Shown here: positions 1,746-35,628 of the stretch, piece after piece
How the letters are laid out: each line of letters begins with the position of its first letter
Numbering within the stretch: the first letter of the stretch is position 1
Source of the DNA: a virus
Direction: 5' to 3' (one strand)
DNA length: 42,547 nucleotides
IMG/VR virus record: IMGVR_UViG_3300009439_000003
The notes under the pieces: model-generated
Told to the model about the DNA's origin: nothing
The model's input: only the letters and a program-made list of their open reading frames with translations
The model's database searches: none
Position numbers and translations under genes: made by a program

Positions 1746-1771
1746 ACCATCATTAATAATTAAACCGAGAG
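1735..1771 (+). repeat. 37-nt core of the promoter/leader module, identical to 26473-26509
   Basis: GTTTAAATTTGACCATCATTAATAATTAAACCGAGAG is present at both loci. Confidence 0.9.
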
Positions 1772-1772
1772 C
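1762..1772 (+). promoter_or_regulatory. early-gene leader motif AAACCGAGAGC
   Basis: Perfect 11-mer, 4 nt upstream of ATG 1777. Confidence 0.7.
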
Positions 1773-1776
1773 AAAA

Positions 1777-2028
1777 ATGGGAACAGTAATTAATTTAACA
1801 ACAAAATTTGAGGAGGGAAACATTTACCAAATGACTTTTATTGGAGATGCTGATTTAAAAGTGTCTTATATCTGTGTAAAGAGAACTAAAAAAATGGTTA
1901 CTCTTGAAAAATTCAAAGGAACAGAGGTTTTAAAAAAGAAAATAAATGTTTACCAAGGAGTTGAATATGTAAGAGCAGGGAGTTACTCAATGGCACCATC
2001 TATTTATGCAGATAAAATAATTGGATAA
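1777..2028 (+). CDS. hypothetical protein (83 aa)
   Basis: ORF directly downstream of P1 and the leader motif. Confidence 0.6.
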   Translation: MGTVINLTTKFEEGNIYQMTFIGDADLKVSYICVKRTKKMVTLEKFKGTEVLKKKINVYQGVEYVRAGSYSMAPSIYADKIIG

Positions 2029-2029
2029 T

Positions 2030-2257
2030 ATGACAATCAATAATGTAACCATTGGAGATAAATTTATACATCCAAATGATAGAAAGAGCAAAAGAATTTC
2101 AGAGGTTTACGATTTTCTGGAGGTCAAAAGTTTAACAACAGGGAAACATCTGGAGTACCTTTGTTGCGTTAAAAAAGATTTTTTAGGGCAAGTATTATAT
2201 TCACAAGTAGCATTTTCAACAGTAGTTAGATATAAATTAAAAACCGAGAGCAAATGA
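2030..2257 (+). CDS. hypothetical protein (75 aa)
   Basis: ATG 2030 lies 2 nt after the preceding stop. The ORF track opens at TTG 2021. Confidence 0.55.
   Translation: MTINNVTIGDKFIHPNDRKSKRISEVYDFLEVKSLTTGKHLEYLCCVKKDFLGQVLYSQVAFSTVVRYKLKTESK
2241..2251 (+). promoter_or_regulatory. early-gene leader motif AAACCGAGAGC
   Basis: Perfect 11-mer, 2 nt upstream of ATG 2254. It lies inside the 3' end of the upstream ORF (..KTESK*). Confidence 0.7.
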
Positions 2258-2463
2258 ATTTACAAGAGCAAATTGAATTATTAGAAAACCAAAAAAAAGC
2301 ACTATCAAATTATATTGAGATGTGCATTTTTATTAAAGCAGTTCCAAAGCCAGAGATTTTGATGGTATTGGAGGATAATACAAGCATTGAAAAATTGCAA
2401 GAGGCAATGAGAATGTTTGAGGAAACAAAGGAGAAATACACTAAAGCAATACAGGATGTTTGA
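2254..2463 (+). CDS. hypothetical protein (69 aa)
   Basis: ATGA start/stop overlap with the upstream gene, and the leader motif lies immediately upstream. Confidence 0.6.
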   Translation: MNLQEQIELLENQKKALSNYIEMCIFIKAVPKPEILMVLEDNTSIEKLQEAMRMFEETKEKYTKAIQDV

Positions 2464-2701
2464 AACAATAGGATTTTCAATAGATTATTACGTTGGAGGC
2501 AAGTTTGTTGGTTATGTTGTAAATGATGCTCCAGATAGAGAGCAGAATGGATATGCAGGGAGAAAGGTTGAGATATTGAATGAGGATGTTGTATGTACTA
2601 ACAGAAAAATAATTAAGGCAGGACAGGAGGTTAAAACAGAGCAAGTGCAGATGTATGGAAAGCTGACGAAAGAATTTAGAAAAAAGGCTTTTAGCATTTA
2701 A
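2456..2701 (+). CDS. hypothetical protein (81 aa)
   Basis: ATG 2456 is preferred over the track's TTG 2417. It overlaps the previous stop by 8 nt (ATGTTTGA). Confidence 0.5.
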   Translation: MFETIGFSIDYYVGGKFVGYVVNDAPDREQNGYAGRKVEILNEDVVCTNRKIIKAGQEVKTEQVQMYGKLTKEFRKKAFSI

Positions 2702-2711
2702 AATTAATGTT

Positions 2712-2719
2712 TAAATTTG
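2712..2719 (+). promoter_or_regulatory. -7 box TAAATTTG of a module-type promoter (P4; no clear -33)
   Basis: AATGTTTAAATTTGACCA matches the P1-P3 core. A 6-bp hairpin TGTACC/GGTACA (2741-2756) is inserted in the leader. Confidence 0.5.
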
Positions 2720-2750
2720 ACCAATTAATAATTGTACCGATGGTACAGAA

Positions 2751-2761
2751 AAACCGAGAGC
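2751..2761 (+). promoter_or_regulatory. early-gene leader motif AAACCGAGAGC
   Basis: Perfect 11-mer, 4 nt upstream of ATG 2766. Confidence 0.7.
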
Positions 2762-2765
2762 AAAG

Positions 2766-3641
2766 ATGAGTACAAGTAAAGATGTTACAGGATTACTATT
2801 AGAGGATTTATGGGATTTGTGTTACAGAGCGCATAGTTGGATTTCTTTTAGTCCAGAAAAAAGAGCAACCAGATATATCAAAGAATATAGCGAGTTGTTA
2901 AAATCAGATTTGGAACTGTTAGGGGAAAACCAAGGAAACTACAAAGAGAAATTTATTAGCAAGTTTAAGGATTGGATGGGAGCAAAAAGCAACTGTGCAT
3001 CATCCGCTATTACAGGAGGTTCTGGTTTTAATGTAAGGAAAGCAAACAAGGCTAATGATAGAGAGCATAAAAAATGGCAGGATTTCTCAATGTGGAGAGA
3101 TAAGTATTTTAATGCAGTTAATCGTGTGCCAACTAAAAGTCCAGAGGATGAGTTGGAGATTGCAGAGAATTTATTGGAGAAACTTACTTTGAACCAATTA
3201 GAGTATAAAGAGATAAATGCAGAGATTAGAAAGTGCAAAATAACAGACCATTACGAATTGCTGAAATATCTGGGAGAGCAAGGATTTGACAAGAGTAAAT
3301 TTGGAGAAATACAGGAGCGAGGAGGTAAATTAAAAATTCCATCATACGTGCTAACTAATAACAATGCGACTATTAAGAGAAATGAGCAAAAAGTTAAGGT
3401 TATGCAAGCAAGAATTGACCGCAAGAATACTTGGGAGGACATCAAATTTGATGGAGGATATGTTACTATTGAGGATGATAGGTTAAAGATTTTCCACGAT
3501 GAGAAACCAGAGAGAGTTGTGATTGATGAGATTAAAAAGAATGGTTTTAGATGGTCGCCACATTGGGGATGTTGGTGCAGAAAGCATACAGGCAATGCGA
3601 TCTACTCTTTGAGGTTTTTAAGTTTCATTAATCAAAAATAA
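2766..3641 (+). CDS. hypothetical protein (291 aa)
   Basis: Long ORF with its own promoter-like box and leader motif, followed by a terminator. It has a C-terminal GFRWSPHWGCW motif. No function could be assigned by eye. Confidence 0.7.
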   Translation: MSTSKDVTGLLLEDLWDLCYRAHSWISFSPEKRATRYIKEYSELLKSDLELLGENQGNYKEKFISKFKDWMGAKSNCASSAITGGSGFNVRKANKANDREHKKWQDFSMWRDKYFNAVNRVPTKSPEDELEIAENLLEKLTLNQLEYKEINAEIRKCKITDHYELLKYLGEQGFDKSKFGEIQERGGKLKIPSYVLTNNNATIKRNEQKVKVMQARIDRKNTWEDIKFDGGYVTIEDDRLKIFHDEKPERVVIDEIKKNGFRWSPHWGCWCRKHTGNAIYSLRFLSFINQK

Positions 3642-3650
3642 ATATTAATC

Positions 3651-3675
3651 AAATCCTCCAGAAATGGAGGGTTTT
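3651..3675 (+). terminator. rho-independent terminator
   Basis: Stem CCTCCA/TGGAGG (3655-3660 / 3665-3670) with a GAAA loop and flanking A/T extension, followed by GTTTT. Confidence 0.6.
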
Positions 3676-3689
3676 AATTCTTTTAAAAA

Positions 3690-3923
3690 ATGTATCTAAT
3701 TTATAAAACAGACAATCATCATAGTTTTAAAAGCAGAGATGTGATTGGAGTAGTTGAGGAGGAGAAAAATATTATTAAGATTTGCCAATTACAGGCTAAA
3801 AAAGAAGAGTTTGTAATTACAGGAGAGCAGATATTTAATTTATCAAATTATAAACAAACGCAAGGTTATGTTGGAGATGGAGAGTTTGTTGTTGAGCAAG
3901 TAAATATTAACGAATTATTATAA
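3690..3923 (+). CDS. hypothetical protein (77 aa)
   Basis: ORF with an ATG start that fills the gap between neighbours. Confidence 0.55.
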   Translation: MYLIYKTDNHHSFKSRDVIGVVEEEKNIIKICQLQAKKEEFVITGEQIFNLSNYKQTQGYVGDGEFVVEQVNINELL

Positions 3924-3932
3924 AAAATTAAG

Positions 3933-4094
3933 ATGAGCGAAAAGGAGCAAGAATATTTAAAGACAGCATTTATTGAATTAACAATAAAAGTTCAAGAGCA
4001 AAAGGAGGAAATAAAAACTGCCCAAGCAGAGGCAAAGAGAAATTGGGATTGGTTTGTTGCCGAACAAGAGAAAACAAAGCAGATAGAAAAATAA
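3933..4094 (+). CDS. hypothetical coiled-coil-like protein (53 aa)
   Basis: ATG 3933 to TAA 4092-4094, translated by hand (MSEKEQEYLK...KQIEK). It falls below the ORF-track length cut-off. Confidence 0.45.
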   Translation: MSEKEQEYLKTAFIELTIKVQEQKEEIKTAQAEAKRNWDWFVAEQEKTKQIEK

Positions 4095-4100
4095 TAATTT

Positions 4101-4111
4101 AAAACGAGAGC
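4101..4111 (+). promoter_or_regulatory. early-gene leader motif variant AAAACGAGAGC
   Basis: 10/11 match, 4 nt upstream of ATG 4116. Confidence 0.55.
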
Positions 4112-4115
4112 AAAA

Positions 4116-4595
4116 ATGGGATTAGATATTTCAGTTTACCAAAACATTAAAAAAGTCATAACAGAAGATTATGAGGAGTTTGATTTTGCGGCATTTGTCA
4201 TTAATGAGAGATGGTTGTATAAGATTAAAAATTTAGAAAACAATGCAAAATATGTTGGAGATGTTGCAGAGCCAGAGGTTGGTTATTCTTATAGCAGTCA
4301 TTATCAATTTAGAAATTATTTATGTGAGATTATTTTAGAGAGAGAGGTTAAAAGATTTAGCGATGAGGATTTGGATGAGAAAATGCCTTTTATAGAGTTG
4401 ATAGATTTTGCAGACAATGGGGGATGTTTGGATTGGGAGGTTAGTGAAAAACTTTACAAGGATTTTGTTGAGCATAAGGATAAAGCGGTTAAATATCTGG
4501 AGGAACAAAATGAGCCTCATTTTAGAGATAGATATTTGGATTGGTTAAAAGTATTTGAGGTGGCAAAGGAGAGAGGAGTTGTTGTTTTTAGATAA
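4116..4595 (+). CDS. hypothetical protein (159 aa)
   Basis: ORF preceded by a leader-motif variant and followed by a terminator. Confidence 0.65.
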   Translation: MGLDISVYQNIKKVITEDYEEFDFAAFVINERWLYKIKNLENNAKYVGDVAEPEVGYSYSSHYQFRNYLCEIILEREVKRFSDEDLDEKMPFIELIDFADNGGCLDWEVSEKLYKDFVEHKDKAVKYLEEQNEPHFRDRYLDWLKVFEVAKERGVVVFR

Positions 4596-4627
4596 AGCAA
4601 TATATTTACATAACAATTTGGGGATTG

Positions 4628-4666
4628 CCTCGCAGAAAGCAGAAATGCAAGTATGCGAGGTTTTTT
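4628..4666 (+). terminator. rho-independent terminator
   Basis: Stem CCTCGCA/TGCGAGG (4628-4634 / 4654-4660) followed by TTTTTT 4661-4666. Confidence 0.65.
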
Positions 4667-4680
4667 AATAGCGAGAATTT

Positions 4681-5112
4681 ATGGCGACAAAAAGCACATT
4701 GAGAAAATTAGAGACCAAGGTTAAAAAAGAGTTTGGTTTGATGGAGATGAGATTAACAGTTTTAAAAACCAATCCAACAAATGAAAATCTGGAGAGGTAT
4801 TATAAAGCATCGGACAAATTGGATGATGTATTGGATGAGTATTATAGTGCAAGTATTATGTATTTCTCCATTGAGAAACCAGAGCTTTATGAGTTGTATA
4901 TTGACCAATCAAAAACCAAGGTCAAAAAGAAATTTTTAAGGCAGATAACAAACTCAAAAAAATCAGCTTTAATGTATAAAACAAATGAGCATCGTTTGGA
5001 GGTTCTGGAGGAGGAAAAGAGAGCAATGATTAAAAAGAAATACAGAGGAGTAAAATTACAAAGAGTAAGCAAAAGCATATCCAGATTAAAGAGATGGATG
5101 GAATACGATTAG
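4681..5112 (+). CDS. hypothetical protein (143 aa, Lys-rich, helical)
   Basis: ORF with an ATG start. It is the last gene of the cassette between terL and the late block. Confidence 0.6.
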   Translation: MATKSTLRKLETKVKKEFGLMEMRLTVLKTNPTNENLERYYKASDKLDDVLDEYYSASIMYFSIEKPELYELYIDQSKTKVKKKFLRQITNSKKSALMYKTNEHRLEVLEEEKRAMIKKKYRGVKLQRVSKSISRLKRWMEYD

Positions 5113-8190: not shown

Positions 8191-9132
8191 ATGGCATTAA
8201 ATGCAGATAAATTAAAAGCAAGTACAGCGTTAGCAGGACTAACGGAGGAGCAAATTAAGGCAGTAACAGAGTTGAGTACTAATGATGAGACTGCTGTTAT
8301 AGGAGAAAGAATTGGAAAGTTTTGGGGCGACATTGATAGAGATGTTGAGGAAACCACAGGACTAAAAAAGCCAGAGGGTGTGAAAACATTTGATTGGCTT
8401 AAAAGTGATGTTTTTAGTAAAGTTGGTGCATCATCTAAATTGCAGAAAAAACTTGATACTCTTAAAGGGGAAAAGGAGGAGCTTGAAAAGCAGTTAAAAG
8501 ATGGTAAGGTTGATGAGGCTATTGTAAAAAAGTTAAAAGACAATGAGCAACTTGTGAAAGATTTACAAGGTCAAATGGCAACTGAAAAAACCAAATACGA
8601 AAAGCAATTAACTGATGCACAAAGCCAGAATGTTAGCATTATGGTTAACAATGAGTTTGATAGAGCATTGGTTGGTAAAAAGTTCAAGGATGAGGCGATT
8701 ATACCAAAATCCGTGAGAGATAGTTATATTGGCAATGCCAAACAAGCTATTCTTTCAGAGAACACACCAGATTGGATAGACGACGGAAGAGGTGGGAAAA
8801 CGTTAGTATTTAGAGATGCTAATGGAGACATCAAAAGAAACCCAGAAAACAACCTTAATCCGTTCACAGCATCGGAGTTATTTACAACAAAGATTGCTGA
8901 TGTATTAGACCAAGGTAAAAACCAAGGTGGTGCAGGAACAGGAGGAAAAGGTGCAGGAGGAGGAAAGACAAGCGAGCTTTCTTTGTCTGGAGTAAAAACA
9001 CAAGTTGAGGCTGATGATACGATTACTGATTATCTTATGGGAAAAGGTTTAGTAAGAGGAACAGCAGAATACAACCAAGAATTTGACCAAATTAGAACAG
9101 AAAACAATGTTGCTGATTTGGACATCCGTTAG
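8191..9132 (+). CDS. putative scaffolding protein
   Basis: 313 aa, highly charged and coiled-coil-like with a Gly-rich tract. It lies immediately upstream of the capsid gene. Confidence 0.5.
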   Translation: MALNADKLKASTALAGLTEEQIKAVTELSTNDETAVIGERIGKFWGDIDRDVEETTGLKKPEGVKTFDWLKSDVFSKVGASSKLQKKLDTLKGEKEELEKQLKDGKVDEAIVKKLKDNEQLVKDLQGQMATEKTKYEKQLTDAQSQNVSIMVNNEFDRALVGKKFKDEAIIPKSVRDSYIGNAKQAILSENTPDWIDDGRGGKTLVFRDANGDIKRNPENNLNPFTASELFTTKIADVLDQGKNQGGAGTGGKGAGGGKTSELSLSGVKTQVEADDTITDYLMGKGLVRGTAEYNQEFDQIRTENNVADLDIR

Positions 9133-13396: not shown

Positions 13397-13403
13397 TCGA
13401 GAG
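13397..13403 (+). promoter_or_regulatory. truncated leader motif TCGAGAG
   Basis: It abuts ATG 13404 of the ParB-like gene. Confidence 0.35.
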
Positions 13404-15686: not shown

Positions 15687-15748
15687 ATAACTAAATTTGT
15701 ATTTCAATAGTTAGCTGATGGGTAGGCTCACATAATCAATTAAAAGAG

Positions 15749-18700
15749 ATGAGCAACCCAATTAAAGGCAGTGATTTATACCAAGATGATGGAGCGATTG
15801 ACAAGGGAATAAAAGACCTTGAAAAAATGAAAGAGGCATATACTGTTATGCTTGATACTATCACAAAGGAGGCAGAGAATTTGATTGCCAAATTAAAGGA
15901 GGTCAATACTACTACAACAGAGGGGCAAGGTGCAGCAAAAAAAGCAATGACCGATGCCGAGAAATTAAAAAAGGCTCAAAAGGAGTATGCAAGCGCTTTA
16001 AATGATACCAATACGAAAATCCGTGCTTTGAGAGATGCAAAGAGAGAGGATATACGTGAGCAGAAATTACAGAACAAATTAGCGAAGTCAGCAGAGGGCA
16101 GTTACAATAAATTGTCAGCTCAATATTCTTTAAATAAATTAGCTTTAAATAAGATGAGTATTGCAGAAAGAAGTGCAACAAAATCTGGACAAGCTTTAGA
16201 GAAACAAACGAGAGAGATTTATGAGGAGATGAACCGATTGCAGAAAGCAACAGGGAAACATACCTTACAGGTTGGGAATTATGGAATTGCCACAGAAAAC
16301 TTGCATCCAATTTTAGGGAGAGTAAACCAAGGATTGGGAGCTATGGGAACCAGTTTAGAGGTATTGGGTGAAGCTGATAAACCATTTAAAGTATTAAAAA
16401 ATGCAGTTCTTAATTTTGGAAAAGCAACCTTGACTTTTTTACTTTCTCCAATTGGATTGGTATTGAGTGCTGTTGGTGCTTTGTTCTATTTAATTGCGAG
16501 TAATAAAGATACTGTTATACAATTTAATTCGGATTTGATTGATGTTGGTAAAACCGCTAATTTATCTGGAGAGGAGTTGAGAGGATTAGGGCAGGACATT
16601 GTTGATTTATCCAGAAAACTCAAAGTAATTGGAACTCCTGCATTGTTGCAGTATGCAAAGGTAGCAGGGCAGTTGGGAGTTAAAGGAAAAGAGAATATAC
16701 TTGCTTTTACTGAAAGCCTTGCTAAATTAGAAACTGCAACAAATATATCTGGAGAGGAGGGAGCGAGTAATATTACCAGATTGCTAACTCTTACAGATGG
16801 AGGAGTGCAGAATGTTAAAGATTTTGGAGATGAGATTGTTAATTTAGGAAATAATTTTGCTGCAACTGAAAGTGAGATTTTAACCAATGCAACTGCAATT
16901 GCACAGAATACCGCACAGTATGGAGTTGGTAGAAAGATTGTATTAGCTTACGCAACTGCAACCAAAGCAGTAGGTATTGAGGCAGAGCTTACAGGTTCCA
17001 CAATAGGGAGGACTTTGGGAATGATGGAGAAAGCTATTAGAACAGGAAAAGGAATTGATAGCATTGCAAAAATAACAGGACAGAATGTTGAGGAGTTAAA
17101 GGCTCAATTTAGAGACGACCCAAGTGCGGTATTTACAAATTTTATTGCAGGATTAAAGGAGGTTAATAGTGCAGGAGGTTCTGTAAATGAGCAATTGGAA
17201 AATATTGGTATTACATCAGTAAGAGACCAAAGAGTAATTTCCTCACTTGCAACAAAAGGATTTGATGTTTTAAAAGGTTCTATTGATGAGGTCAACAAAT
17301 CTGGAGGCTCATTGGATAAGGAATTTGGTGCAGCATCTGGAAAGTTAAGCGCTCAACTTAGTAGAGTTGGAATTGCGTGGGATAATTTTGTTTTAAGCAT
17401 CGAGGATGGAGAGGGGTTTTTAAGCAAGATAGCAGCTTTTTTTGCAGGAGAGTTTGCAAAGTCAATAGATAGAGCAGCGTTTTTCATTAAAGTAATGGGA
17501 GCAGTAATATCTGGAATTATTGCAGTATTTAAGCAATGGTTTAAAGAGGCCGGCAAGTTTATTCAGTCGATTAGAGATATTGCAGATGTTGAGATTGATT
17601 TTAGCAGTCCGTTGGAGAGTTTAAAGAATATTAAAAATGCTTTTAAGAATGTAGGGAAAACTTATGTGCAAGGAGCGGTTAATACAGCGAATGCGTTTGG
17701 AGATGCTTTTAAAAAGGAGTTGAGTAGGTCAATGGAGGCTACCAAGAAAGCAATGGAAAAGAGTGGAGATGAGTTGGATAAGATATTGGATGAGAGTATT
17801 AAAAAAAGTATTCAATCGGTTGGAGATATTGATGCGGAGATTGCGAAGTTAAATAAGACCCTTAAAGGAGCTAAAAGTCGAGGAGAAGCAAGTAAGATAC
17901 AGAATGAGATAAAAGCATTGGAAGACAAGCGAAATGCTATTCTGGGAGTGGCTAATGCTAATCTGAAAGAGGCAGAGAGTAGAGCGATGGGAAAACAGAA
18001 AGCCAAGATTGATGTGATGGAGGATGGAGAGAGCAAGGATGTTGCCATTTTAGATATGGAGTTGGCTGAAAAAAGAAAACTTTGGGAAAAGTATGGATTG
18101 GATGTTGCTTTATTAGAGGATTACGAAAAGAGACAGAGGTTTTTGATTTCTCAAAAATGGAGAGAGAAAGAGATTGCTGATGCTAAAGCGAAACAGGATA
18201 AGATTACAGCAGATAGGAGGAAAGCGAATAGCGAGGAGATGGCTATTATAAATGATGCTTATGATTTGAGATTGTCAGAGATTGACATAATGAAAAATAC
18301 AGAGGCTGAAAAAACAAAGTTACGTTTGGAGGCTGAAAAGTCGAGATTGGAAAAGATTTTAAAGCTGAATGAAACCGTTAATAAGCAGTTATCTAAAGAC
18401 CAGATTGATGCAATAAAGAATACCATTAAGAAAATTGATGGAGAGATACAGGGAGTTGGAAGTGGTCAAAAGGATATTTACCAGATGGTAGGATTGAATT
18501 TGGATGATGAGCAGAAACAGGCGATTAGTGATAGTTTAAGTTTTGCGTTGGATAATGTAAATGCTTTTTTAGATGCAAGAGTACAATCGGCAGAAATTGC
18601 AGTACAGAAAGCACAGGAGGAAACGAGTGCAGCAGAAAGTCGATACCAAGCTGAAATTGATGCGAGGAATAATGGATATGCAAATAATGTTATCACAGCG

Positions 18701-19353: not shown

Positions 19354-21921
19354 ATGATAGAATATAAATGGACTTTACAACATAGAGAAAGTAATGAGGA
19401 TAATAAGATTGACCCCTATGCTATAACGCAGGGGTTTTACTGGTTTAATGATAATGAGGATGATAATAGTGCCTGTGCTTATAGTAAAAAAATATCAATT
19501 TCTCCAAACCAAAATTACCAAGGGAGGATAAATGGGAGTGCTACAACTAATATTTTTAGGTTTGTTACTTTTTATGATTTTAATGGAATGTATTTGAGTG
19601 ATTTGAATGGGTTTGTGGATAGTTTTTTAAGTCCAAGCGGTGCTTATTATTGTATTGTTACTATAAATAGTTTAATTAATGGATTAGATGCTGAAAATGT
19701 AAGTTTAACGTTAGGCTTAGCAAGTGAGTTTGTACCATATTATACAAGCAGGGTTGTTTCTCCTATTTATAAAAAGATGGCAAGAGGATACAAGTTAGAA
19801 AGTGGAAAGCAGTTTTATAGAGAGAAATTAGATGGAAATGTTAAATTGATTAGAGAGGATTTTGATTACATAGATGCTCTACCATTTGATACCGAGTTTA
19901 AATTGTTGATTGAGGACTTAACAGGAATATTGCAAGATTATAGAGGTCTGTTTTTTAAAACTGATTGTAAATGGAATGAGGATGATAGGATTGTTGAGTT
20001 AAAGATGGAGCCAGATGATGAGTATGTTGATTTACTTGCAGGATTAGAGAAAACTTATAATTTGGTAGAATTAGAGCCAGAGATTAATGAGTTGACATTG
20101 AAAAAAAGACCATTAATACAAGTTTATATTCCAGGCGATACAGTTGTTACAAATATTCTGGGAGGAACACATTGGGAGCAAGAGATACAAACCGACCCAA
20201 TATTTGACCATAATGCTTTAATAAATACCTATAAATTTGCCAATCCAAAAAACATCCGTATCGTTCCTGCATCTTATGCTGCTCAATTAAGTACAGACAT
20301 TACAGGAGAGTATGATGATAATAGATTGAATGCAAATGGTCTTTATAGATTAGAGGAGGTTGCAACAGGGCAATCATATTGGTATCAAAAATATTATCAA
20401 ATTGTTAGAGTTTCAGATGATGCAGTATTGTATAAAACAGCAAATACAGATTGGAGAAATACAAGTGTAAATAGTTTAGTTTTTAGAGGAGCAACCAGAA
20501 ACACAATTACAGAGACAGGAACTTTTTATTTTACTGAATACAAGATTTATGTTAGGTCTTATACCGATTTATTAGAGACAGAAGGAACAGGGCAAAGTCC
20601 TGTTTCTACATATGAAATACCAAGCGAGGATATTATTGCCAACAACCGTAATTATAGGAGGATAATAGGTTACAATATTGATGATTTTTATATTTATGAT
20701 GAGTTTGTTGAGTACCCAACTAAATTTGGAAAAGTACCAGATGATACTCCAGATGGAGGAAAGTATTACAAAGAGTTTTTGGTACCGGTTACAACAGGGT
20801 TGAGTAACCCACTTCCTGTAAGTTCATCAAATTGGAAAAGCGTTAGTTTGTGGTTTTTTAATACTTCATCAATTAGATATACCGAGTTTATAGATGGTCA
20901 AGATTACACATTGAGAGATAGCTACACTTTGGATAGTGTTATTGATGTGTTATTGAGAGAAATGGGCAGTACTGTAAGGCATAAAAATACAATTGAATAT
21001 AGCCAAGTGCTTTATGCTGATCTAAACCCATTAGGAGGATTTACTTATTTGGATTTTGATGGAGGAACTGCAATAGATTATTCTGGAAATATTAAACATT
21101 TTCTAACTGCAAAATCAAATATCATAGCAGGAGAGTATGACCAACCAAGTCAAAAGGCTAATGCATCATTGAGTCAGATTTTAAATATGTTGAGAGATTG
21201 TTACAGGATTTTCTGGCATATTGAAAATGGAAAATTAAGATTGGAGCATATTACTTGGTATCAAAATGGAGGAACTTATACAGGAACTATTTTGGGAGCA
21301 GATTTAACAACTTTGGTTCAACCTAAAAATGGAAAAAATTGGAGTTTCTCACAAGGAAAGTATGAGTATGATAAGGAGGAGATGCCAGAGAGATTTGAGT
21401 TTGGATGGATGGATGATGTGAGCGCTCCGTTTGAGGGGAAAGCAATTGAGATGGTTGGGAACTTTGTGCAAAGAGGTAGAATTGAGGATATGAATGTAAA
21501 TGGAATTACAACCGATATTGATTTTATTATGGCTAATCCGCAAGAAATTAGCAAGGATGGTTTTTGTTTGATTTCAACAGTTGAGGTTGATGGAGTTGAT
21601 AGAGTGCCTTTTATTGAGAGAGATATTGGGTTTAACCAAGAGGTTATAATGCAAAACGGATTTTTAAGTTGGCTATATTTACATCCTAAATTCCATATCT
21701 ACGATCTACCAAGTGATAAAGCGATTATTAATGGAGAGGAGGTTGGCCTTTTTTATAACAAAACAAGACAGAAAAAGCAAGAGGTTACATTTCCTGCACA
21801 AAATCAAATAAACCCCTTAAACATCATTAGAACCAATTTAGGAGATGGAATTGTTGATGCTTTTAAAATTGATATGAGTAGTAGAATAGTAAAAGCAACC
21901 ATAAAACACGATAACGAATGA
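19354..21921 (+). CDS. putative distal tail or tail-tip protein
   Basis: 855 aa, immediately downstream of the tape measure gene. Confidence 0.5.
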   Translation: MIEYKWTLQHRESNEDNKIDPYAITQGFYWFNDNEDDNSACAYSKKISISPNQNYQGRINGSATTNIFRFVTFYDFNGMYLSDLNGFVDSFLSPSGAYYCIVTINSLINGLDAENVSLTLGLASEFVPYYTSRVVSPIYKKMARGYKLESGKQFYREKLDGNVKLIREDFDYIDALPFDTEFKLLIEDLTGILQDYRGLFFKTDCKWNEDDRIVELKMEPDDEYVDLLAGLEKTYNLVELEPEINELTLKKRPLIQVYIPGDTVVTNILGGTHWEQEIQTDPIFDHNALINTYKFANPKNIRIVPASYAAQLSTDITGEYDDNRLNANGLYRLEEVATGQSYWYQKYYQIVRVSDDAVLYKTANTDWRNTSVNSLVFRGATRNTITETGTFYFTEYKIYVRSYTDLLETEGTGQSPVSTYEIPSEDIIANNRNYRRIIGYNIDDFYIYDEFVEYPTKFGKVPDDTPDGGKYYKEFLVPVTTGLSNPLPVSSSNWKSVSLWFFNTSSIRYTEFIDGQDYTLRDSYTLDSVIDVLLREMGSTVRHKNTIEYSQVLYADLNPLGGFTYLDFDGGTAIDYSGNIKHFLTAKSNIIAGEYDQPSQKANASLSQILNMLRDCYRIFWHIENGKLRLEHITWYQNGGTYTGTILGADLTTLVQPKNGKNWSFSQGKYEYDKEEMPERFEFGWMDDVSAPFEGKAIEMVGNFVQRGRIEDMNVNGITTDIDFIMANPQEISKDGFCLISTVEVDGVDRVPFIERDIGFNQEVIMQNGFLSWLYLHPKFHIYDLPSDKAIINGEEVGLFYNKTRQKKQEVTFPAQNQINPLNIIRTNLGDGIVDAFKIDMSSRIVKATIKHDNE

Positions 21922-22801: not shown

Positions 22802-24331
22802 ATGAGCTGGAGTAGTTTAAAAGAAGCAGTAAGTACTGTAATTACGGACAACGGAAATAACGAAATAACTGGGCCTATTTTAAAAGCCATAATAAACAAT
22901 AATTTAATACCTCAACTCGGGGGCAGTCTATTTAGAGGTGTCGCAACTCCAACAACAGCACCCGGCACACCTGAAAAAAAAGAAAGGTACTTAGCAGAAA
23001 CGAAAGGGATTTACCCCAACTTCGGGGGAATAGAAGTGTATAACGAAATATGTTTTTTAGAATACCAAAGTACGCAATGGGTTAAAATAACTCTTTTTGA
23101 AAAAGATCAGCACCCATCGGAGCAGTCCACTAATTTAGTTGAAAGTAGAGGGGTGTTCGAGCTTTTTAACAGTTCAGAAAAAGGATTCCAAACCTTAAAC
23201 GACAGCAATGCAATAAAGGCAAGCGGTTTAACTTTTACATTAGATAATGGGAGTTTCAATATTACTAAATCTTGGACTTTCCCTTGGATAAGTTTTAAAT
23301 CAAAACGATACCAGTTTAAATTAATAGCACAAAGCAGATACCTAGTTATAGCTGCTGGAAATACTTCGGCTCTTGCAGTTACAATGGATAAGACCACGAA
23401 TAGCTGCCGTATTTTTAGGTTTAACAGCGACGGAACTTTACAGGTAGTTGTATCCTCTTTACCTAATAACTTATTTACTGCGGGCAGATTAATAGAAGCC
23501 TTTAGGGTGGGTACGACAATAACCATTTTAGAAAACGGGGTCTTAAAATTTACCTACGATTATTCAGATAGTTTGGAGCCTGAATTTTCAAACCCCGTTT
23601 TCGGGAATGCGTTTATAGCCAATGGAACACAGTTGACAGGAGCTAAAGCCTCATTGACCGAATCTATAAGCAGCAGACTTACAGCACTAGAAAATGGGAT
23701 AGTGTCAGTCGAAGATACTACCGAATTGGTGGGGCAGACAATGGCAGATGTCGGGGATAGTCTACTAGATCAAAACGGTACACAGCCTTTGATTATGGCA
23801 AGATTTGGGATAGCATCAAATCAATCGCTAGCAGTAAGTGGGAGAAGATTTACGGGAAATGATGCAAGTGCAATAACTCAACAGATTCAAAACATATCGG
23901 GTTCTCCAAAACTCATACTAATTGGCGGAGGGACTAATGATTTTGGAAACCACGTAGCTTTGGGGAACCAAGGGAGTACAGATATTGCAGAGTTTTATGG
24001 AGCGATTAATTTTGTTGCAAATTATGCAGTAAACAATTATCCAAATAGCAAATTACTTTGGTTAGGTTTACCTTTTGGAAATTGGCAGAATACAAATGGT
24101 TTTGCAAGAGGTCAGATAAATAACTTAGCATTAACAAGGTATGATTATGATGATGCTTTAAGAAAAGTAACAAGAGATAATGGGATTATGTATGTATCTC
24201 AATTAAATGAATTGCCTCATAATTTACAGAATATAGCAAATGTAACAAGTGATGGCATTCATTTTAATTCAATAGGTAGCGCAGACAGGGAATTTTTATG
24301 GTCTATTTATATTAATCTTTTATTTCAGTAA
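22802..24331 (+). CDS. tail fibre / receptor-binding protein with a C-terminal SGNH (GDSL) esterase domain
   Basis: SGNH blocks are present: I VGDSLL (GDS at 23753-23761), II AVSGRRF, III LIGGGTNDF, V TSDGIHFN. Codon usage is atypical (GAA, GGG, ATA). Confidence 0.75.
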   Translation: MSWSSLKEAVSTVITDNGNNEITGPILKAIINNNLIPQLGGSLFRGVATPTTAPGTPEKKERYLAETKGIYPNFGGIEVYNEICFLEYQSTQWVKITLFEKDQHPSEQSTNLVESRGVFELFNSSEKGFQTLNDSNAIKASGLTFTLDNGSFNITKSWTFPWISFKSKRYQFKLIAQSRYLVIAAGNTSALAVTMDKTTNSCRIFRFNSDGTLQVVVSSLPNNLFTAGRLIEAFRVGTTITILENGVLKFTYDYSDSLEPEFSNPVFGNAFIANGTQLTGAKASLTESISSRLTALENGIVSVEDTTELVGQTMADVGDSLLDQNGTQPLIMARFGIASNQSLAVSGRRFTGNDASAITQQIQNISGSPKLILIGGGTNDFGNHVALGNQGSTDIAEFYGAINFVANYAVNNYPNSKLLWLGLPFGNWQNTNGFARGQINNLALTRYDYDDALRKVTRDNGIMYVSQLNELPHNLQNIANVTSDGIHFNSIGSADREFLWSIYINLLFQ

Positions 24332-26452: not shown

Positions 26453-26483
26453 TTGTGTAGCTTAAACATAATGTTTAAATTTG
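26453..26483 (+). promoter_or_regulatory. early-type promoter P2
   Basis: TTG 26453-26455, a 20-nt spacer, then TAAATTTG 26476-26483. The module is near-identical to P1. Confidence 0.65.
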
Positions 26484-26499
26484 ACCATCATTAATAATT

Positions 26500-26510
26500 A
26501 AACCGAGAGA
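26500..26510 (+). promoter_or_regulatory. early-gene leader motif (AAACCGAGAGa)
   Basis: 10/11 match, 3 nt upstream of ATG 26514. Confidence 0.65.
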
Positions 26511-26513
26511 AAA

Positions 26514-26757: not shown

Positions 26758-26768
26758 TAATCGAGAGC
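26758..26768 (+). promoter_or_regulatory. leader motif variant TAATCGAGAGC
   Basis: The CGAGAGC core lies 4 nt upstream of ATG 26773. Confidence 0.5.
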
Positions 26769-28345: not shown

Positions 28346-28585
28346 ATGAGTTTAAATAATTTACAAGAGTTCTCTCCAGAGGGAGGAAATGAGAATTTTG
28401 TTGAGTTTGAGAAAGGGCAAAAAGTTCAAATTTATAAAGACCCAAATTTTGAGGAAATTCCAGAAAGTATGGCGATTATTGATAGAGTATTGATGAGCGA
28501 AAAAACAAGGTCGCTTTGCTTGGTTACTCTGGAGAGTAATGATATGCAAGTTGAGAGATGGATAAAAAAGGAGGTTTTGGAATAA
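28346..28585 (+). CDS. hypothetical protein (79 aa)
   Basis: ATG 28346 is preferred over the track's TTG 28337. Confidence 0.5.
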   Translation: MSLNNLQEFSPEGGNENFVEFEKGQKVQIYKDPNFEEIPESMAIIDRVLMSEKTRSLCLVTLESNDMQVERWIKKEVLE

Positions 28586-28591
28586 TTTTTA

Positions 28592-28621
28592 TTGCAGGAG
28601 TGGTTGAATGTAGTATATTTG
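28592..28621 (+). promoter_or_regulatory. promoter of the ORF-less transcription unit
   Basis: TTG 28592-28594, a 19-nt spacer, then TATATTTG 28614-28621. Confidence 0.6.
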
Positions 28622-28626
28622 TATCA

Positions 28627-28701
28627 CTCCGCTAATATCCGACCGCTCTCGGTTTATCTGCCAATAAAGCCACTAACGTTCTTGTTAGTGGCTTTTCTTT
28701 T
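28627..28701 (+). ncRNA. candidate ~75-nt small RNA carrying the anti-leader sequence GCUCUCGGUUU
   Basis: A promoter lies upstream and an intrinsic terminator lies at the 3' end, with no ORF between them. Nt 28645-28655 are the exact reverse complement of the leader motif AAACCGAGAGC. The 5' end is only estimated. Confidence 0.45.
28667..28701 (+). terminator. rho-independent terminator
   Basis: 11-bp perfect stem AAGCCACTAAC/GTTAGTGGCTT (28667-28677 / 28684-28694), a 6-nt loop, then TTCTTTTT. Confidence 0.8.
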
Positions 28702-28712
28702 TAAATTAAAAC

Positions 28713-28743
28713 TTGTGTTAATTAAAATTAAAGTTTAAATTTG
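28713..28743 (+). promoter_or_regulatory. early-type promoter P3
   Basis: TTG 28713-28715, a 20-nt spacer, then TAAATTTG 28736-28743. It carries the same GTTTAAATTTGACCA core as P1 and P2. Confidence 0.65.
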
Positions 28744-28760
28744 ACCACATTAATATTGTA

Positions 28761-28771
28761 AAACCGAGAGA
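28761..28771 (+). promoter_or_regulatory. early-gene leader motif (AAACCGAGAGa)
   Basis: 10/11 match, 3 nt upstream of ATG 28774. Confidence 0.65.
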
Positions 28772-28773
28772 AA

Positions 28774-28905
28774 ATGACTTACGATGATTGGAAATTAGAC
28801 AACCCTTTTGATGATGAGAAAGACAATGAATGTGGTTATTGTGGAGAGCCTACAGATAAAGATTTTTGTAACAAAGAATGTTACAAAGCGTACCAAAATG
28901 ATTAA
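28774..28905 (+). CDS. Cys-rich mini-protein (43 aa)
   Basis: Hand-translated as MTYDDWKLDNPFDDEKDNECGYCGEPTDKDFCNKECYKAYQND. It lies directly after P3 and the leader motif. Confidence 0.5.
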   Translation: MTYDDWKLDNPFDDEKDNECGYCGEPTDKDFCNKECYKAYQND

Positions 28906-28925: not shown

Positions 28926-29222
28926 ATGGGAAAACCAGCATTAAAGATTGAGGAGGCTTTGGACTTTCACGAAAAGACCAAGGCTAAAAGTGAGCCAAGT
29001 ATTTTAAAAGGAGATTTGGCAAATGTTTTCTTTGGAGGAGCGAAAGAGAAAACAAGACCAGTAAATATGAGTAATTTGGTAGGTGGTCGAACTACAAGAG
29101 TTGACCCAGAGTGGGTGCATCATTTATGTAAAGTTACAAGAGTAGATGCGAACTTTTTATTTGGCATTAAGCCAATGAACCCAAAAACATTAGAGAAGTA
29201 TGAGAGCGGAGCGTATAATTAA
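28926..29222 (+). CDS. putative HTH DNA-binding protein (98 aa)
   Basis: The C-terminal segment EWVHHLCKVTRVDANFLFGI resembles the recognition-helix end of XRE-type HTH domains. The match is weak. Confidence 0.4.
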   Translation: MGKPALKIEEALDFHEKTKAKSEPSILKGDLANVFFGGAKEKTRPVNMSNLVGGRTTRVDPEWVHHLCKVTRVDANFLFGIKPMNPKTLEKYESGAYN

Positions 29223-29368: not shown

Positions 29369-30475
29369 ATGAGTAACGAGAGCGAAAAAGCAAAAGACAT
29401 TGAAGTAAAAGGAGCTAAAGAGATTAGTGCTTTTGATAAGATGATGGCTGACAATCCAGATGGAGTTTATGAGTTGGCGCCTGGCTTAACATCGGAGGAG
29501 ATGTTTGCAGTTTTCTTTGATGAGAAAGCGTTGGTTGAGGCACCAGAAAAAATATACCGATTGCAAGGGAGTAGCCATAGGTATTATTACAAGTTTGATG
29601 AGCAAGGTTTGCCAGATTTCTTTACATCAGTAACAACGATGATTAAGCAAACGATGCCTACAAGTCCTCATTTGATTAAATGGATTGCTGATATGGGATA
29701 TGAGGAAAGTAGAAATTTTGCAGCAGAGAGAGCTGATTATGGAACTTTTATGCACACAGAAATTGCAGAGTTGTTGATTGCCAGAAAGTATGATACGGAG
29801 AAAATAAAAAGTAAGTTAAAAGCCTATATTGAAAAGGAAAACTTACCAAGTGATTTCATTAACCACGCAGATGAGTTGAAAAAAGATATTTTGGCTTTTG
29901 CTCAATTTATGATTGATTATAATGTTAAGCCATTAGCGATTGAGATTGTATTGAGCCACCCAACAGATGGATATGCAGGAGCGATTGATTTGGTCGCTGA
30001 AATATCTGGAGAAATTTCTGGGCATTGGGGAGAGGTTTATAAATCTGGAGCAAAGGTTGGTCAACCGAGAAAGACAACTAAATTTATTGAGGGAGTTAAA
30101 TGTATTATTGATTTCAAAAGTGGGAGAAAGGGATTTTATGAAGAACACGAGATACAATTACAAGCATACCAAGAGATGTGGGATGCTCACTTTCCAGATA
30201 GAAAAGTTGAGAAAAGGTTTAATTGGTCGCCAAAAGAATGGAGAGGAGCGAAACCAACCTATAATTTGAAAGACCAAACGGAGGCAAAAAGTGTTTATAA
30301 ATTAAAGCATCTGGTTGAATTAGCAAGAGTTGAGAAAGATAGGAGAAATGATACAGTTGTTGTAATTTCTGGAGAAATTGACTTAAAGGATAGATTGGAT
30401 AAGAATATGCAGGAAATGACATTAAGTGAATTGGTTAAAAAGAGAAAGACTGAAAAGGATAAACCAACCAAGTAA
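29369..30475 (+). CDS. PD-(D/E)XK family exonuclease (RecB/Cas4-like nuclease fold)
   Basis: Motifs GTFMHTEIAE, GAIDLV, IIDFKSG (D-x-K) and HEIQLQAYQ are present in the canonical order. Confidence 0.7.
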   Translation: MSNESEKAKDIEVKGAKEISAFDKMMADNPDGVYELAPGLTSEEMFAVFFDEKALVEAPEKIYRLQGSSHRYYYKFDEQGLPDFFTSVTTMIKQTMPTSPHLIKWIADMGYEESRNFAAERADYGTFMHTEIAELLIARKYDTEKIKSKLKAYIEKENLPSDFINHADELKKDILAFAQFMIDYNVKPLAIEIVLSHPTDGYAGAIDLVAEISGEISGHWGEVYKSGAKVGQPRKTTKFIEGVKCIIDFKSGRKGFYEEHEIQLQAYQEMWDAHFPDRKVEKRFNWSPKEWRGAKPTYNLKDQTEAKSVYKLKHLVELARVEKDRRNDTVVVISGEIDLKDRLDKNMQEMTLSELVKKRKTEKDKPTK

Positions 30476-31056: not shown

Positions 31057-31747
31057 AATTAAAAGACCAGAGAAAGTTGAGGCATTTAAGATGCCCAGAG
31101 TTGGAATGATAAAAACAGGATATAAAGATGAGCGAGGTTATCCACGATCTTGCGATTATTTTTTAGCATCTGGAAAGTATAAAGTATTATTTGATAATGC
31201 GTACCCAAATAAACCCAAGACCTTGCAAATTGTATTCTGGGAGGATAATTATGAAACGATGTGCAATGAGAGATATGAGTACCGAGATAATGAGGGAAAG
31301 TTGTTTGCATCTGGAGATGGAGAGGAGTTTGATGTTTGGAATGGAGAAAAATATGTAAAATATTTAATTGCTGACCATCCAAATTTGATGGAGGATTTGC
31401 ATAAGAAACAGAGAAACAAAAAAGGATGGGAGGTTATTTTAACCTTGCGTTTTTTCTTACCAAAAGTCAAAGATATTGCAGGATATTGGGAGTACTCAAC
31501 AAAAGGAGAGGCATCAACTATTCCTGCGATTAGAGATACTTTTGATTTGATGATGGAGAGCAGAGGTTCTGTAAGAGGAGTTATTTTTGATTTGAATGTA
31601 ATATTTGCTAAAAGTCAAAAGCCTGGAGTTAAAAGCCGATACCCTGTTGTTTCATTGATACCAAACCAGAGTAAAGCTAATATTGAGGCAGTTAAGGGAG
31701 CGATGTTAAATGTATCACAAACGCCAATGCTTGGAGATGGGAATTAA
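31043..31747 (+). CDS. hypothetical protein (234 aa; recombination-module context)
   Basis: ATG 31043 is preferred over the track's TTG 31034. It lies downstream of the PD-(D/E)XK exonuclease. No motif was recognised. Confidence 0.55.
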   Translation: MAKGRIKRPEKVEAFKMPRVGMIKTGYKDERGYPRSCDYFLASGKYKVLFDNAYPNKPKTLQIVFWEDNYETMCNERYEYRDNEGKLFASGDGEEFDVWNGEKYVKYLIADHPNLMEDLHKKQRNKKGWEVILTLRFFLPKVKDIAGYWEYSTKGEASTIPAIRDTFDLMMESRGSVRGVIFDLNVIFAKSQKPGVKSRYPVVSLIPNQSKANIEAVKGAMLNVSQTPMLGDGN

Positions 31748-31760
31748 AATAGTATATTTG
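31731..31760 (+). promoter_or_regulatory. promoter (TTG-N19-TATATTTG)
   Basis: TTG 31731-31733 and TATATTTG 31753-31760. The AGTATATTTGT box is the same as at 28612. Confidence 0.6.
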
Positions 31761-31810
31761 TCAAAGAGTTACCGATTTGCACCAATGAGTAACCAAACCT
31801 AAAAATATTC

Positions 31811-31863
31811 AATCGTTAATGCTGGAGGGAGTGCAAACCCAAAGGCGTTAGCGATTTTTTTTT
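31811..31863 (+). terminator. hairpin plus T9 tract in the leader of the 31867 gene (attenuator or terminator candidate)
   Basis: AATCGTTAA/TTAGCGATT (31811-31819 / 31848-31856, one G-U pair) with a 28-nt loop, running into nine T residues (31855-31863). Confidence 0.35.
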
Positions 31864-31866
31864 ATT

Positions 31867-32265
31867 ATGTTAAAAAAGAGAGCGAAAAAGGATTTTGAGT
31901 ATTGGGTTTGGAAACAAAATCAAGAATTAATTAAAAAGGATGTTAAGTATTATTTGGTATTGGTTGAGGGAAAGTTTGAGGAAAGAATACCATTTGATAT
32001 GAGGTTTGGTTTTTATGTAAAATGGTTTTGTAGAGTAGGAATACCAATAGGAGTTGCACCAGAGTATAATGAGCATAACAATGAGTTTAATGGCTATATG
32101 CCAATAATAAGAGATGCTATTTTCTGGAAAGCAAATGAGGATGGATATTATAAAGACTTGCAGGAGGCAAGAGAGGTGTTAATTAGGGAGGCTATGATAA
32201 TTTATAACAAAGAGTTATCGTGGAAAGAATTTAAAGAGCAAAGAGGATATGGGAGTAATAAATAA
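31867..32265 (+). CDS. hypothetical protein (132 aa)
   Basis: ORF with an ATG start 4 nt after the T9 tract. Confidence 0.6.
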   Translation: MLKKRAKKDFEYWVWKQNQELIKKDVKYYLVLVEGKFEERIPFDMRFGFYVKWFCRVGIPIGVAPEYNEHNNEFNGYMPIIRDAIFWKANEDGYYKDLQEAREVLIREAMIIYNKELSWKEFKEQRGYGSNK

Positions 32266-32440
32266 AGATAGGTTTGTTGGGTTTGATTTGCAGGATAAAA
32301 ATGATATGTTGGTTTCAATTTTAGGAAACAGAGGGAAGTATTTAACACAAAAAGAATGTTGTTTAATTGAGGAAAAATTAAAGAAAGCAAAAGTTTTCTC
32401 AATAAAAAATGATGTTGAAAAATTAAACCGAGAGCAATAA
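32249..32440 (+). CDS. hypothetical protein (63 aa)
   Basis: ORF overlapping the upstream 3' end by 17 nt. Its own 3' end contains the leader motif for the next gene. Confidence 0.5.
   Translation: MGVINKDRFVGFDLQDKNDMLVSILGNRGKYLTQKECCLIEEKLKKAKVFSIKNDVEKLNREQ
32425..32435 (+). promoter_or_regulatory. early-gene leader motif AAACCGAGAGC
   Basis: Perfect 11-mer, 4 nt upstream of ATG 32440, inside the upstream ORF (..LNREQ*). Confidence 0.7.
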
Positions 32441-35617: not shown

Positions 35618-35628
35618 AAATCGAGAGC
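35618..35628 (+). promoter_or_regulatory. leader motif variant AAATCGAGAGC
   Basis: 10/11 match, 2 nt upstream of ATG 35631. Confidence 0.55.

Follow-up and report, generated by a model that had tools for sequence, protein, structure and literature searches.

The virus genome held as IMG/VR record IMGVR_UViG_3300009439_000003 was analysed as one stretch of 42,547 nucleotides (nt), here called the window. These 42.5 kb contain 34.7% G+C, carry gene-like long open reading frames (ORFs) on the plus strand only, and look like a complete siphophage genome with a large terminase gene at 189-1700. This work concerns an element of 11 nt, AAACCGAGAGC, which recurs just upstream of start codons in the window, and a compact plus-strand unit at 28592-28703, made up of a promoter, a body of ~45 nt and an intrinsic terminator, in which an inverted copy of the same element is found. 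Pairing between an RNA from this unit and the start-codon element is well supported at the level of sequence, and its probable consequence is control of early and replication genes.

Allowing up to one mismatch, AAACCGAGAGC matches the window ten times against 0.29 expected, a count that none of 100 dinucleotide shuffles reached; comparison with shuffled sequence was the control proposed in the initial annotation of this DNA, which had described the element next to the start codons of early-class genes. Perfect copies lie on the plus strand at 1762, 2241, 2751 and 32425, and copies matching at 10 of 11 positions lie on the same strand at 4101, 26500, 28761, 34120 and 35618, all as originally listed. 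The tenth copy is perfect but inverted (28645-28655), and it is the sole copy on the minus strand. Each of the nine plus-strand copies stops 2-4 nt 5' of an ATG that opens an ORF of 43 codons or more (ATGs at 1777, 2254, 2766, 4116, 26514, 28774, 32440, 34135 and 35631). Three of them (2241, 32425 and 34120) overlap the 3' ends of the preceding ORFs, and they do so in two reading frames (..KTESK*, ..LNREQ* and ..IKTES*, respectively), so conservation operates at the nucleotide level, as had been argued at the outset. The shorter hexamer CGAGAG behaves similarly. It occurs 20 times on the plus strand, with an ATG no more than 12 nt downstream in 12 cases and a position within -25..+15 of an ORF start in 13; for the region -20..+15, finding at least 12 of the 20 has a binomial p of 1.8e-10, the near-start count varying with which of these regions is chosen.

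The motif is absent from most genes of the phage, and most other genes in the window have A-rich upstream regions without a Shine-Dalgarno (SD) sequence. The motif itself is not an SD sequence either, in agreement with the initial annotation. Copies 1762, 2751, 26500 and 28761 stand in near-identical cassettes, each consisting of a Bacteroidota-type promoter (TTG, ~19 nt, TAAATTTG) and a leader of ~25 nt, and a fifth copy (35618) is preceded by a degenerate -7 box only, TAAATTAG. Promoters of this type fit with a Bacteroidota host. The cassettes at 1715-1776, 2690-2765, 26453-26513 and 28713-28773 share the pattern cTTGt..N..gTTTAAATTTGacca..AAACCGAGAG..ATG and form the starts of putative early operons, one of which opens the block of small genes at 1777-5112 right after the large-terminase gene. 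A sigma-70 promoter scan, which found 74 promoters where 69.9 were expected, is irrelevant for Bacteroidota.

The existence of four or five copies in such cassettes is what one would expect if the motif were an operator or other DNA-level element, or part of a duplicated promoter-leader cassette, with the inverted copy as an extra binding site. However, copies 2241, 4101, 32425 and 34120 are found in, or downstream of, preceding ORFs and lack a promoter, all copies but one share their orientation and the 2-4 nt spacing to ATG, which implies action at the RNA level, and the inverted copy sits inside a conserved 45-nt body that shows hairpin co-variation. We therefore give hardly any credence to a DNA-level role.

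A candidate small RNA gene and its sites

The unit that contains the inverted copy has the following parts.

28592-28621, plus strand: promoter of the candidate small RNA, of the Bacteroidota type TTGCAG-N19-TATATTTG (custom promoter scan)
28627-28703, plus strand: candidate small RNA of ~75 nt (fold, terminator scan, family alignments A1/A2, covariance model R1)
28644-28656, plus strand: seed CGCUCUCGGUUUA, antisense of the motif (motif scan, exact matching, alignment A2)

The promoter comprises a -33 TTG (28592-28594), a 19-nt spacer and the -7 box TATATTTG (28614-28621), which every homologue has at an identical distance from the seed; the 5' end of the RNA would lie ~6 nt after this box. 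Near its 5' end the RNA can form a hairpin of CCGA (28639-28642), a CCGCUC loop (28643-28648) and UCGG (28649-28652), with loop and 3' arm together reading CGCUCUCGGU. The terminator has a 13-bp stem (28666-28695) followed by the U-run UCUUUUU, the predicted fold of the RNA has an energy of -25.1 kcal/mol (z -6.5), and the whole unit occupies less than 150 nt. A -33/-7 promoter and an intrinsic terminator of its own are the marks of an independent Bacteroidota small RNA gene, and the match of both to consensus, together with their conservation, suggests that 28627-28703 is made as a separate transcript.

As RNA, the seed region reads ...CCGACCGCUCUCGGUUUAUCUGCC... and is perfectly complementary to the motif over 11-12 nt, and the seed loop is predicted to be unpaired (p ~0.9-1) in every lineage. 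Because the purine-rich coding strand yields long G-U-rich pseudo-duplexes, a whole-genome RNAduplex search with the full RNA body was uninformative, and targets were matched by exact Watson-Crick complementarity in its place. All seven exact coding-strand matches of at least 10 nt to the seed lie 2-5 nt before start codons. With matches of 9 nt, eight ORF starts pair with the RNA, compared to 0.72 for shuffled RNA (two of 500 shuffles reach eight). The seed thus has the properties of one that serves many targets: it is the most conserved part of the RNA and is predicted to be accessible, its sites are enriched at starts, and it co-varies with them. The sites in the window are as follows.

1761-1772, plus strand: target TAAACCGAGAGC, 12 nt of perfect pairing, 4 nt before ATG 1777, in the short leader of promoter 1715-1745
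2241-2251, plus strand: target, 11 nt, 2 nt before ATG 2254, within the 3' end of ORF 2030-2257
2751-2761, plus strand: target, 11 nt, 4 nt before ATG 2766 (primase-like protein), downstream of -7 box 2712-2719
4101-4111, plus strand: weaker target AAAACGAGAGC, 7 nt contiguous, 4 nt before ATG 4116
13397-13403, plus strand: doubtful core copy TCGAGAG, pairing over 6 nt, abutting ATG 13404
26499-26509, plus strand: target TAAACCGAGAG, 11 nt, 4 nt before ATG 26514, the first gene after promoter 26453-26483
26762-26768, plus strand: core-only CGAGAGC, 4 nt before ATG 26773
28761-28770, plus strand: target AAACCGAGAG, 10 nt, 3 nt before ATG 28774 (43-aa gene), with promoter 28713-28743
29202-29209, plus strand: possible weak site GAGAGCGG, overlapping the start codon at 29200
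29377-29384, plus strand: site CGAGAGCG, at +9 of the exonuclease gene (ATG 29369)
32424-32435, plus strand: target TAAACCGAGAGC, 12 nt, 4 nt before ATG 32440 (O-like replication initiator), within the 3' end of ORF 32249-32440
34120-34129, plus strand: target AAACCGAGAG, 10 nt, 5 nt before ATG 34135 (nucleoside triphosphate (NTP) pyrophosphohydrolase), within the 3' end of ORF 33231-34133
35618-35628, plus strand: weaker site AAATCGAGAGC, 7 nt contiguous, 2 nt before ATG 35631

Twenty phage proteins were scanned, and the motif-bearing genes include those for the primase-like protein, the O-like replication initiator and the NTP pyrophosphohydrolase, with a weaker site in the exonuclease gene, and several stand first behind host-type promoters. 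They are plausibly early or replication genes, and the label "early class" that they had been given is plausible to the same degree. The accompanying statement that no virion gene is preceded by the motif is nearly right, the exception being the weak core copy at 13397, which lies in a block of large ORFs (5.2-26.3 kb) that appears collinear with the virion genes of Croceibacter phage P2559S. Both core-only copies reported previously, at 26762 and 13397, do exist, and the P2559S ortholog (gp31) of the gene at ATG 26773 bears the full ACCGAGAGCG. The target at 28761 is ~110 nt downstream of the small RNA seed. The two sites overlapping ATG 29200 and at +9 of the exonuclease gene are additions to the earlier list. 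Conservation of the former may be at the protein level, and the ATGAGAGCGG start at 29200 was dropped as a co-varying target since it is not reliable. The exonuclease, whose family counts 1766 homologues, holds a seed-matched sequence at the +9 position in every lineage, for example AAGAGAGCAA in lineage L019 and AGAGCGAA in lineage L263.

A fixed spacing of 2-4 nt to ATG, at leader and intercistronic starts alike, could also be the signature of a translation signal acting in cis by pairing with ribosomal RNA (rRNA), either as a substitute for the SD sequence or as a re-initiation element. We looked for its partner in 120 Bacteroidota rRNA operon loci, 90 with full 16S and 51 with nearly full 23S, which contain no positionally conserved complement of at least 7 nt to AAACCGAGAGCG; the 8-mer GCTCTCGG occurs in few rRNA loci and at scattered positions. 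In addition, the motif changes among related phages whereas rRNA does not, and most phage genes lack it. An rRNA-pairing signal is consequently largely refuted and, in our estimation, extremely improbable. Other conserved parts of the small RNA were considered as a ribosome "adaptor", and they have no shared conserved complement in rRNA.

Conservation and co-variation of seed and motif

Megablast against phage records gave no match, and relatives of the window came from distant-mode and protein searches. The closest isolate is P2559S, at ~66% nucleotide identity. It carries the same motif before orthologous genes, so conservation in related phages, another check proposed at the start, is in place, and its nine CGAGAG copies all coincide with start codons or follow them closely (binomial p 4e-12). 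The RNA unit of P2559S is located at the corresponding place; its body is conserved and its terminator stem rewritten by compensatory changes, of the kind by which the stems differ between phages. Four IMG/VR relatives and two further metagenomic contigs carry the unit as well, marine metagenomic relatives being among the carriers, as do Elizabethkingia phage TCUEAP2 and Parabacteroides phage PDS1 (L013), where it is inverted relative to the genes with its promoter-body-terminator order intact. Across eight aligned homologues with 68% mean column identity (A2), the 10-mer CGCTCTCGGT is the only invariant block, and the predicted fold common to every lineage is a 5' hairpin with (N)NGCUC in the loop, followed by the terminator.

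A gut-type version of the seed region, the 19-mer ATCGCTCTCGGTTACTGCG, is found in more than 120 IMG/VR contigs among the matches listed, many of them ~45 kb long. In 105 dereplicated gut-type-seed loci, again among the matches listed, ~169 copies of GAGAGCG are found on the gene strand outside the RNA gene, of which 110 fall in the -20..+15 region of ORF starts, at offsets of +2, +12/13 and -14, and a control heptamer lies at ORF starts in none of 58 cases. The string GAGAGCGAAAAAG recurs shortly after the ATG of two window genes (29369-29390 and 31867-31895), and GAGAGCGAAAA(C), part of the same string, is the dominant tag of the gut phages, found in PDS1 at 1938, 3424, 5512, 10460 and 14278. 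This tag has a conserved A run after the core, which small-RNA pairing leaves unexplained.

Covariance model R1 retrieves homologues with the canonical seed only and missed the variants in L016, L019 and L263, which were found by a scan for promoter-plus-terminator units and by inspection of the sequences. These variant RNA units have the same position and the same design as the window type. In these three diverged lineages the seed, its 5' partner arm in the hairpin and the start-codon motif have changed jointly, giving, together with the window type, the seed/motif pairs GCUCUCGGU/ACCGAGAGC, UCGCUCUUG/CAAGAGCGA, AUUGCUCUCUU/AAGAGAGCAAU and GUCGCUCUUA/UAAGAGCGAC.

Window type: RNA CC-GCUCUC-GGUUUA; stem CCGA/UCGG; motif UAAACC-GAGAGC
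L263: RNA UUCGCUCUUGG; stem CCAA/UUGG, not CCGA/UCGG; motif CAAGAGCGA(A) at -7, -7, -13 and +12, and at the exonuclease gene
L019: RNA AUUGCUCUCUUAAUU; stem AAUUAGGA/UCUUAAUU; motif AAGAGAGCAAU at five starts, including exonuclease +8
L016: RNA GUCGCUCUUAGAU; motif (U)AAGAGCGAC at three starts

CCGAGAGC is found nowhere in L019. When every RNA is matched against the start regions of every lineage, those of the variant lineages match their own RNA (5, 3 and 3 sites), as opposed to 0-1 sites for the window-type RNA. Shuffled RNAs rarely or never reach the observed number of start-region matches in the window, P2559S, L015, L017, L263, L019, L016 and PDS1. This co-variation is the decisive computational evidence for pairing. 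The GGUUU/GGUAU difference between the window and P2559S was rejected as a further instance, since the targets do not follow it and the RNA's own stem explains it.

The same comparisons bear on whether the motif might be a protein site, bound by a phage or host translational repressor or cut by a nuclease like RegB of phage T4, with the complementary RNA a decoy or unrelated. Conservation does exceed the paired bases, as the marine phages keep AAA 5' of the core and PDS1 keeps AAAAC 3' of it, and the GAGAGC/AAGAGC core is nearly universal across lineages, as a protein site could be. Such a site would give no reason to expect an antisense copy within a promoter-terminator unit that is conserved, or compensatory changes that link this unit to the start-codon motif lineage by lineage, and a decoy would bear the same-sense sequence rather than its complement. 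We judge a protein site to be very unlikely. The initial annotation had offered three explanations without choosing among them, namely a translational enhancer, the site of an RNA-binding factor and the target of an RNA predicted at 28627-28701, and as a set they receive partial support. The last gains from the perfect 11-12 nt complementarity, the conservation of the RNA gene and the co-variation of seed and motif; the first, taken as pairing with rRNA, receives no support from the survey of rRNA operons.

Proposed mode of action and known systems

Bacteroidota messenger RNAs (mRNAs) initiate translation on unstructured A-rich leaders without SD pairing, and these bacteria lack Hfq. In this setting, the motif is probably the binding site of a trans-acting phage antisense RNA (~28627-28703) that would block ribosome access on early/replication genes. 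The RNA would be transcribed from its own host-type promoter and ended by its own intrinsic terminator, and its 5' hairpin would expose CGCUCUC in the loop and GGU(U/A)U on the 3' arm. The seed would then pair over 9-12 nt with (A)ACCGAGAGC(G) at -15..-3 of at least nine early/replication genes, or at sites overlapping the AUG, or in a few cases at +8..+16, all of which are inside the 30S footprint. Because initiation without SD pairing depends on unstructured leaders, a G+C-rich duplex of 9-12 bp there should exclude the ribosome. The outcome would be translational repression of many early genes, serving for shut-off, dosage control or both, with cross-immunity against related phages as a further possibility. 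As for timing, a host-type promoter suggests that the RNA is probably present from the start of infection and accumulates.

The same pairing could instead activate or stabilise the target mRNAs, by protecting short leaders from 5' decay or by opening an inhibitory fold. All the evidence for pairing would serve this alternative as well, and the targets head early operons with leaders of ~25 nt, in which a duplex near the 5' end could affect stability. However, the sites lie at -15..-3, over the AUG (ATGAGAGCG, in gut-type loci) or at +8..+16, within the ribosome footprint, and known activating small RNAs bind further upstream, which makes activation unlikely in our view.

Several observations weigh against repression through this pairing, or at least against its completeness. 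Repression as the direction of effect is itself inferred from the positions of the sites only. Half of the window-type seed (UCGG) is within a 4-bp stem that must open for pairing, and the sites at 4101, 26762, 35621, 13397 and 29202 pair over 6-8 nt only. The AAA 5' of the core is kept even where the RNA reads GGUAU (P2559S, L005 and L015), so pairing leaves part of the 11-mer unexplained; the probable reason is that Bacteroidota generally favour A ahead of their start codons. In TCUEAP2 and L261 the shuffle test gives no significant enrichment at start codons, and L016 also has ATGAGAGCGAT sites, which fit the gut-type seed better than L016's own RNA.

Among known systems, the c4 RNA of phages P1 and P7 seems mechanistically closest to repression by this antisense RNA, and RegA of T4 functionally closest. 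The window RNA belongs to neither, given its own promoter and terminator, its many dispersed targets, the different host phylum and the lack of an Rfam match. P1 and P7 differ by matched changes in c4 RNA and its targets, which produce heteroimmunity, and the lineage-specific seed/motif pairs described here parallel these differences. T4 RegA is a translational repressor of early mRNAs, and RegB is an endonuclease that cuts GGAG in early SD sites. The likeness to this pair is that one phage product would act on many early-gene initiation regions for early shut-off; unlike these proteins, the specificity factor would be an RNA that recognises its sites through base pairing, and the motif is not GGAG and not AU-rich either. 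The P4 CI RNA acts in trans through short repeated complementary sites, is processed from a leader, and uses two sites to cause premature transcription termination in immunity. It shares trans action and short repeated sites with the window RNA, whose sites differ in lying at start codons.

RegB is discussed in PMC9409239. c4 is a phage trans-acting small RNA in which short loop-exposed segments pair around the ribosome-binding site and block translation (PMC12197685). It is processed from its target's own operon (immI) and has two sites in one transcript, controlling one antirepressor in a temperate enterobacterial phage. By contrast, the window RNA has its own promoter and terminator, at least 9-13 dispersed start-codon sites and Bacteroidota hosts, with no integrase noticed in the window. 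We saw no antirepressor context and no Rfam match, including to the C4 family if that is in the Rfam set. P22 sar and lambda OOP are small phage antisense RNAs that inhibit phage genes near coding/initiation regions (PMC12197685); these are encoded in cis and fully complementary to a single overlapping target, whereas the window RNA would act in trans through a short seed on many targets. On the host side, GibS and MasB are chromosomal Bacteroides small RNAs that work independently of Hfq and base-pair with translation-initiation regions through single-stranded seeds (PMC7366714, PMC10861873). They have no sequence relation to the window RNA, and their targets carry no dedicated repeated motif.

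Rfam 15 covariance models gave no match in the window at the gathering threshold; the best sub-threshold match in 28560-28780 was Qrr, at 26.4 bits against a threshold of 50, and in L012, L013, L016 and L019 the only matches were to transfer RNA (tRNA). The searchable literature has no prior description of the sequence, or of small RNAs from Bacteroidota phages, and Bacteroidota are absent from a 2025 review on the small RNAs of phages (PMC12197685). The RNA switch and the RNA family therefore appear to be undescribed, and the feature is real and widespread.

More tentatively, the RNA and the start-region tag may form a lineage-private, co-evolving "address code" with the RNA as a master off-switch, an RNA version of RegA. 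The diversified seeds (GGU, UUGG, UCUU and UUA variants) could then be a determinant of heteroimmunity or exclusion, like c4 in P1/P7 but genome-wide, and such a system would operate in many siphophage contigs of ~45 kb with the gut-type seed. Little is understood of how Bacteroidota and their phages control genes after transcription. If the proposal is true, a whole phage clade, including cultured Croceibacter, Elizabethkingia and Parabacteroides phages and more than 120 gut-type-seed IMG/VR contigs among the matches listed, controls a tagged set of early genes by one small RNA. This would provide a directly testable model of how these phages time their gene expression, a possible basis for phage-phage interference, and natural orthogonal seed/tag pairs for engineering translation control in Bacteroides and Flavobacteria. 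Genome annotation would gain an easily recognised, apparently undescribed RNA family.

Further small RNA-like units and minor observations

A second candidate small RNA unit is present at 31731-31865, in the 120-nt gap before the gene at 31867. A TTG-N19-TATATTTG promoter leads into a body of ~105 nt, which is closed by a long terminator hairpin with U9 (fold -25.3 kcal/mol, z -3.5); conservation of the unit among relatives is weak. Its nt 34-49 are perfectly complementary to 16 nt at 19549-19564, within the tail gene 19354-21921, and over 13 nt to 23410-23422.

Units consisting of TAnnTTTG and a terminator, with unrelated bodies, occupy the same position in the more distant relatives L018 (9815-9906, 9985) and L014 (9205-9308, 9380, 18344). 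Each has a complement of 10-11 nt in a nearby gene leader, which in L018 is the exonuclease start region, and few sites. The L014 unit, with seed CGUUUGUUAA, was rejected as statistically unsupported, since 118 of 300 shuffles reach the observed count.

In L016, a copy of the gut-type seed, AUCGCUCUC, lies on the minus strand at 8760-8790 beside the small RNA promoter, in a CCCCG/CGGGG hairpin followed by a U-run, and several genes start with ATGAGAGCGAT (7607, 13345). L016 may encode two small RNAs, the second in antisense orientation, and use tags of two classes. One of its target sites is directly preceded by a tRNA gene (15730-15802). The window has no tRNA genes that we could find, and its coding-strand composition is strongly asymmetric throughout (A 37.7%, T 27.6%, G 23.0%, C 11.6%). 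In PDS1, gp_11 is annotated with a TTG start at 4430, and the true start is probably the ATG at 4617; the stretch 4420-4617 is intergenic and contains a promoter as well as the small RNA gene, the latter on the opposite strand.

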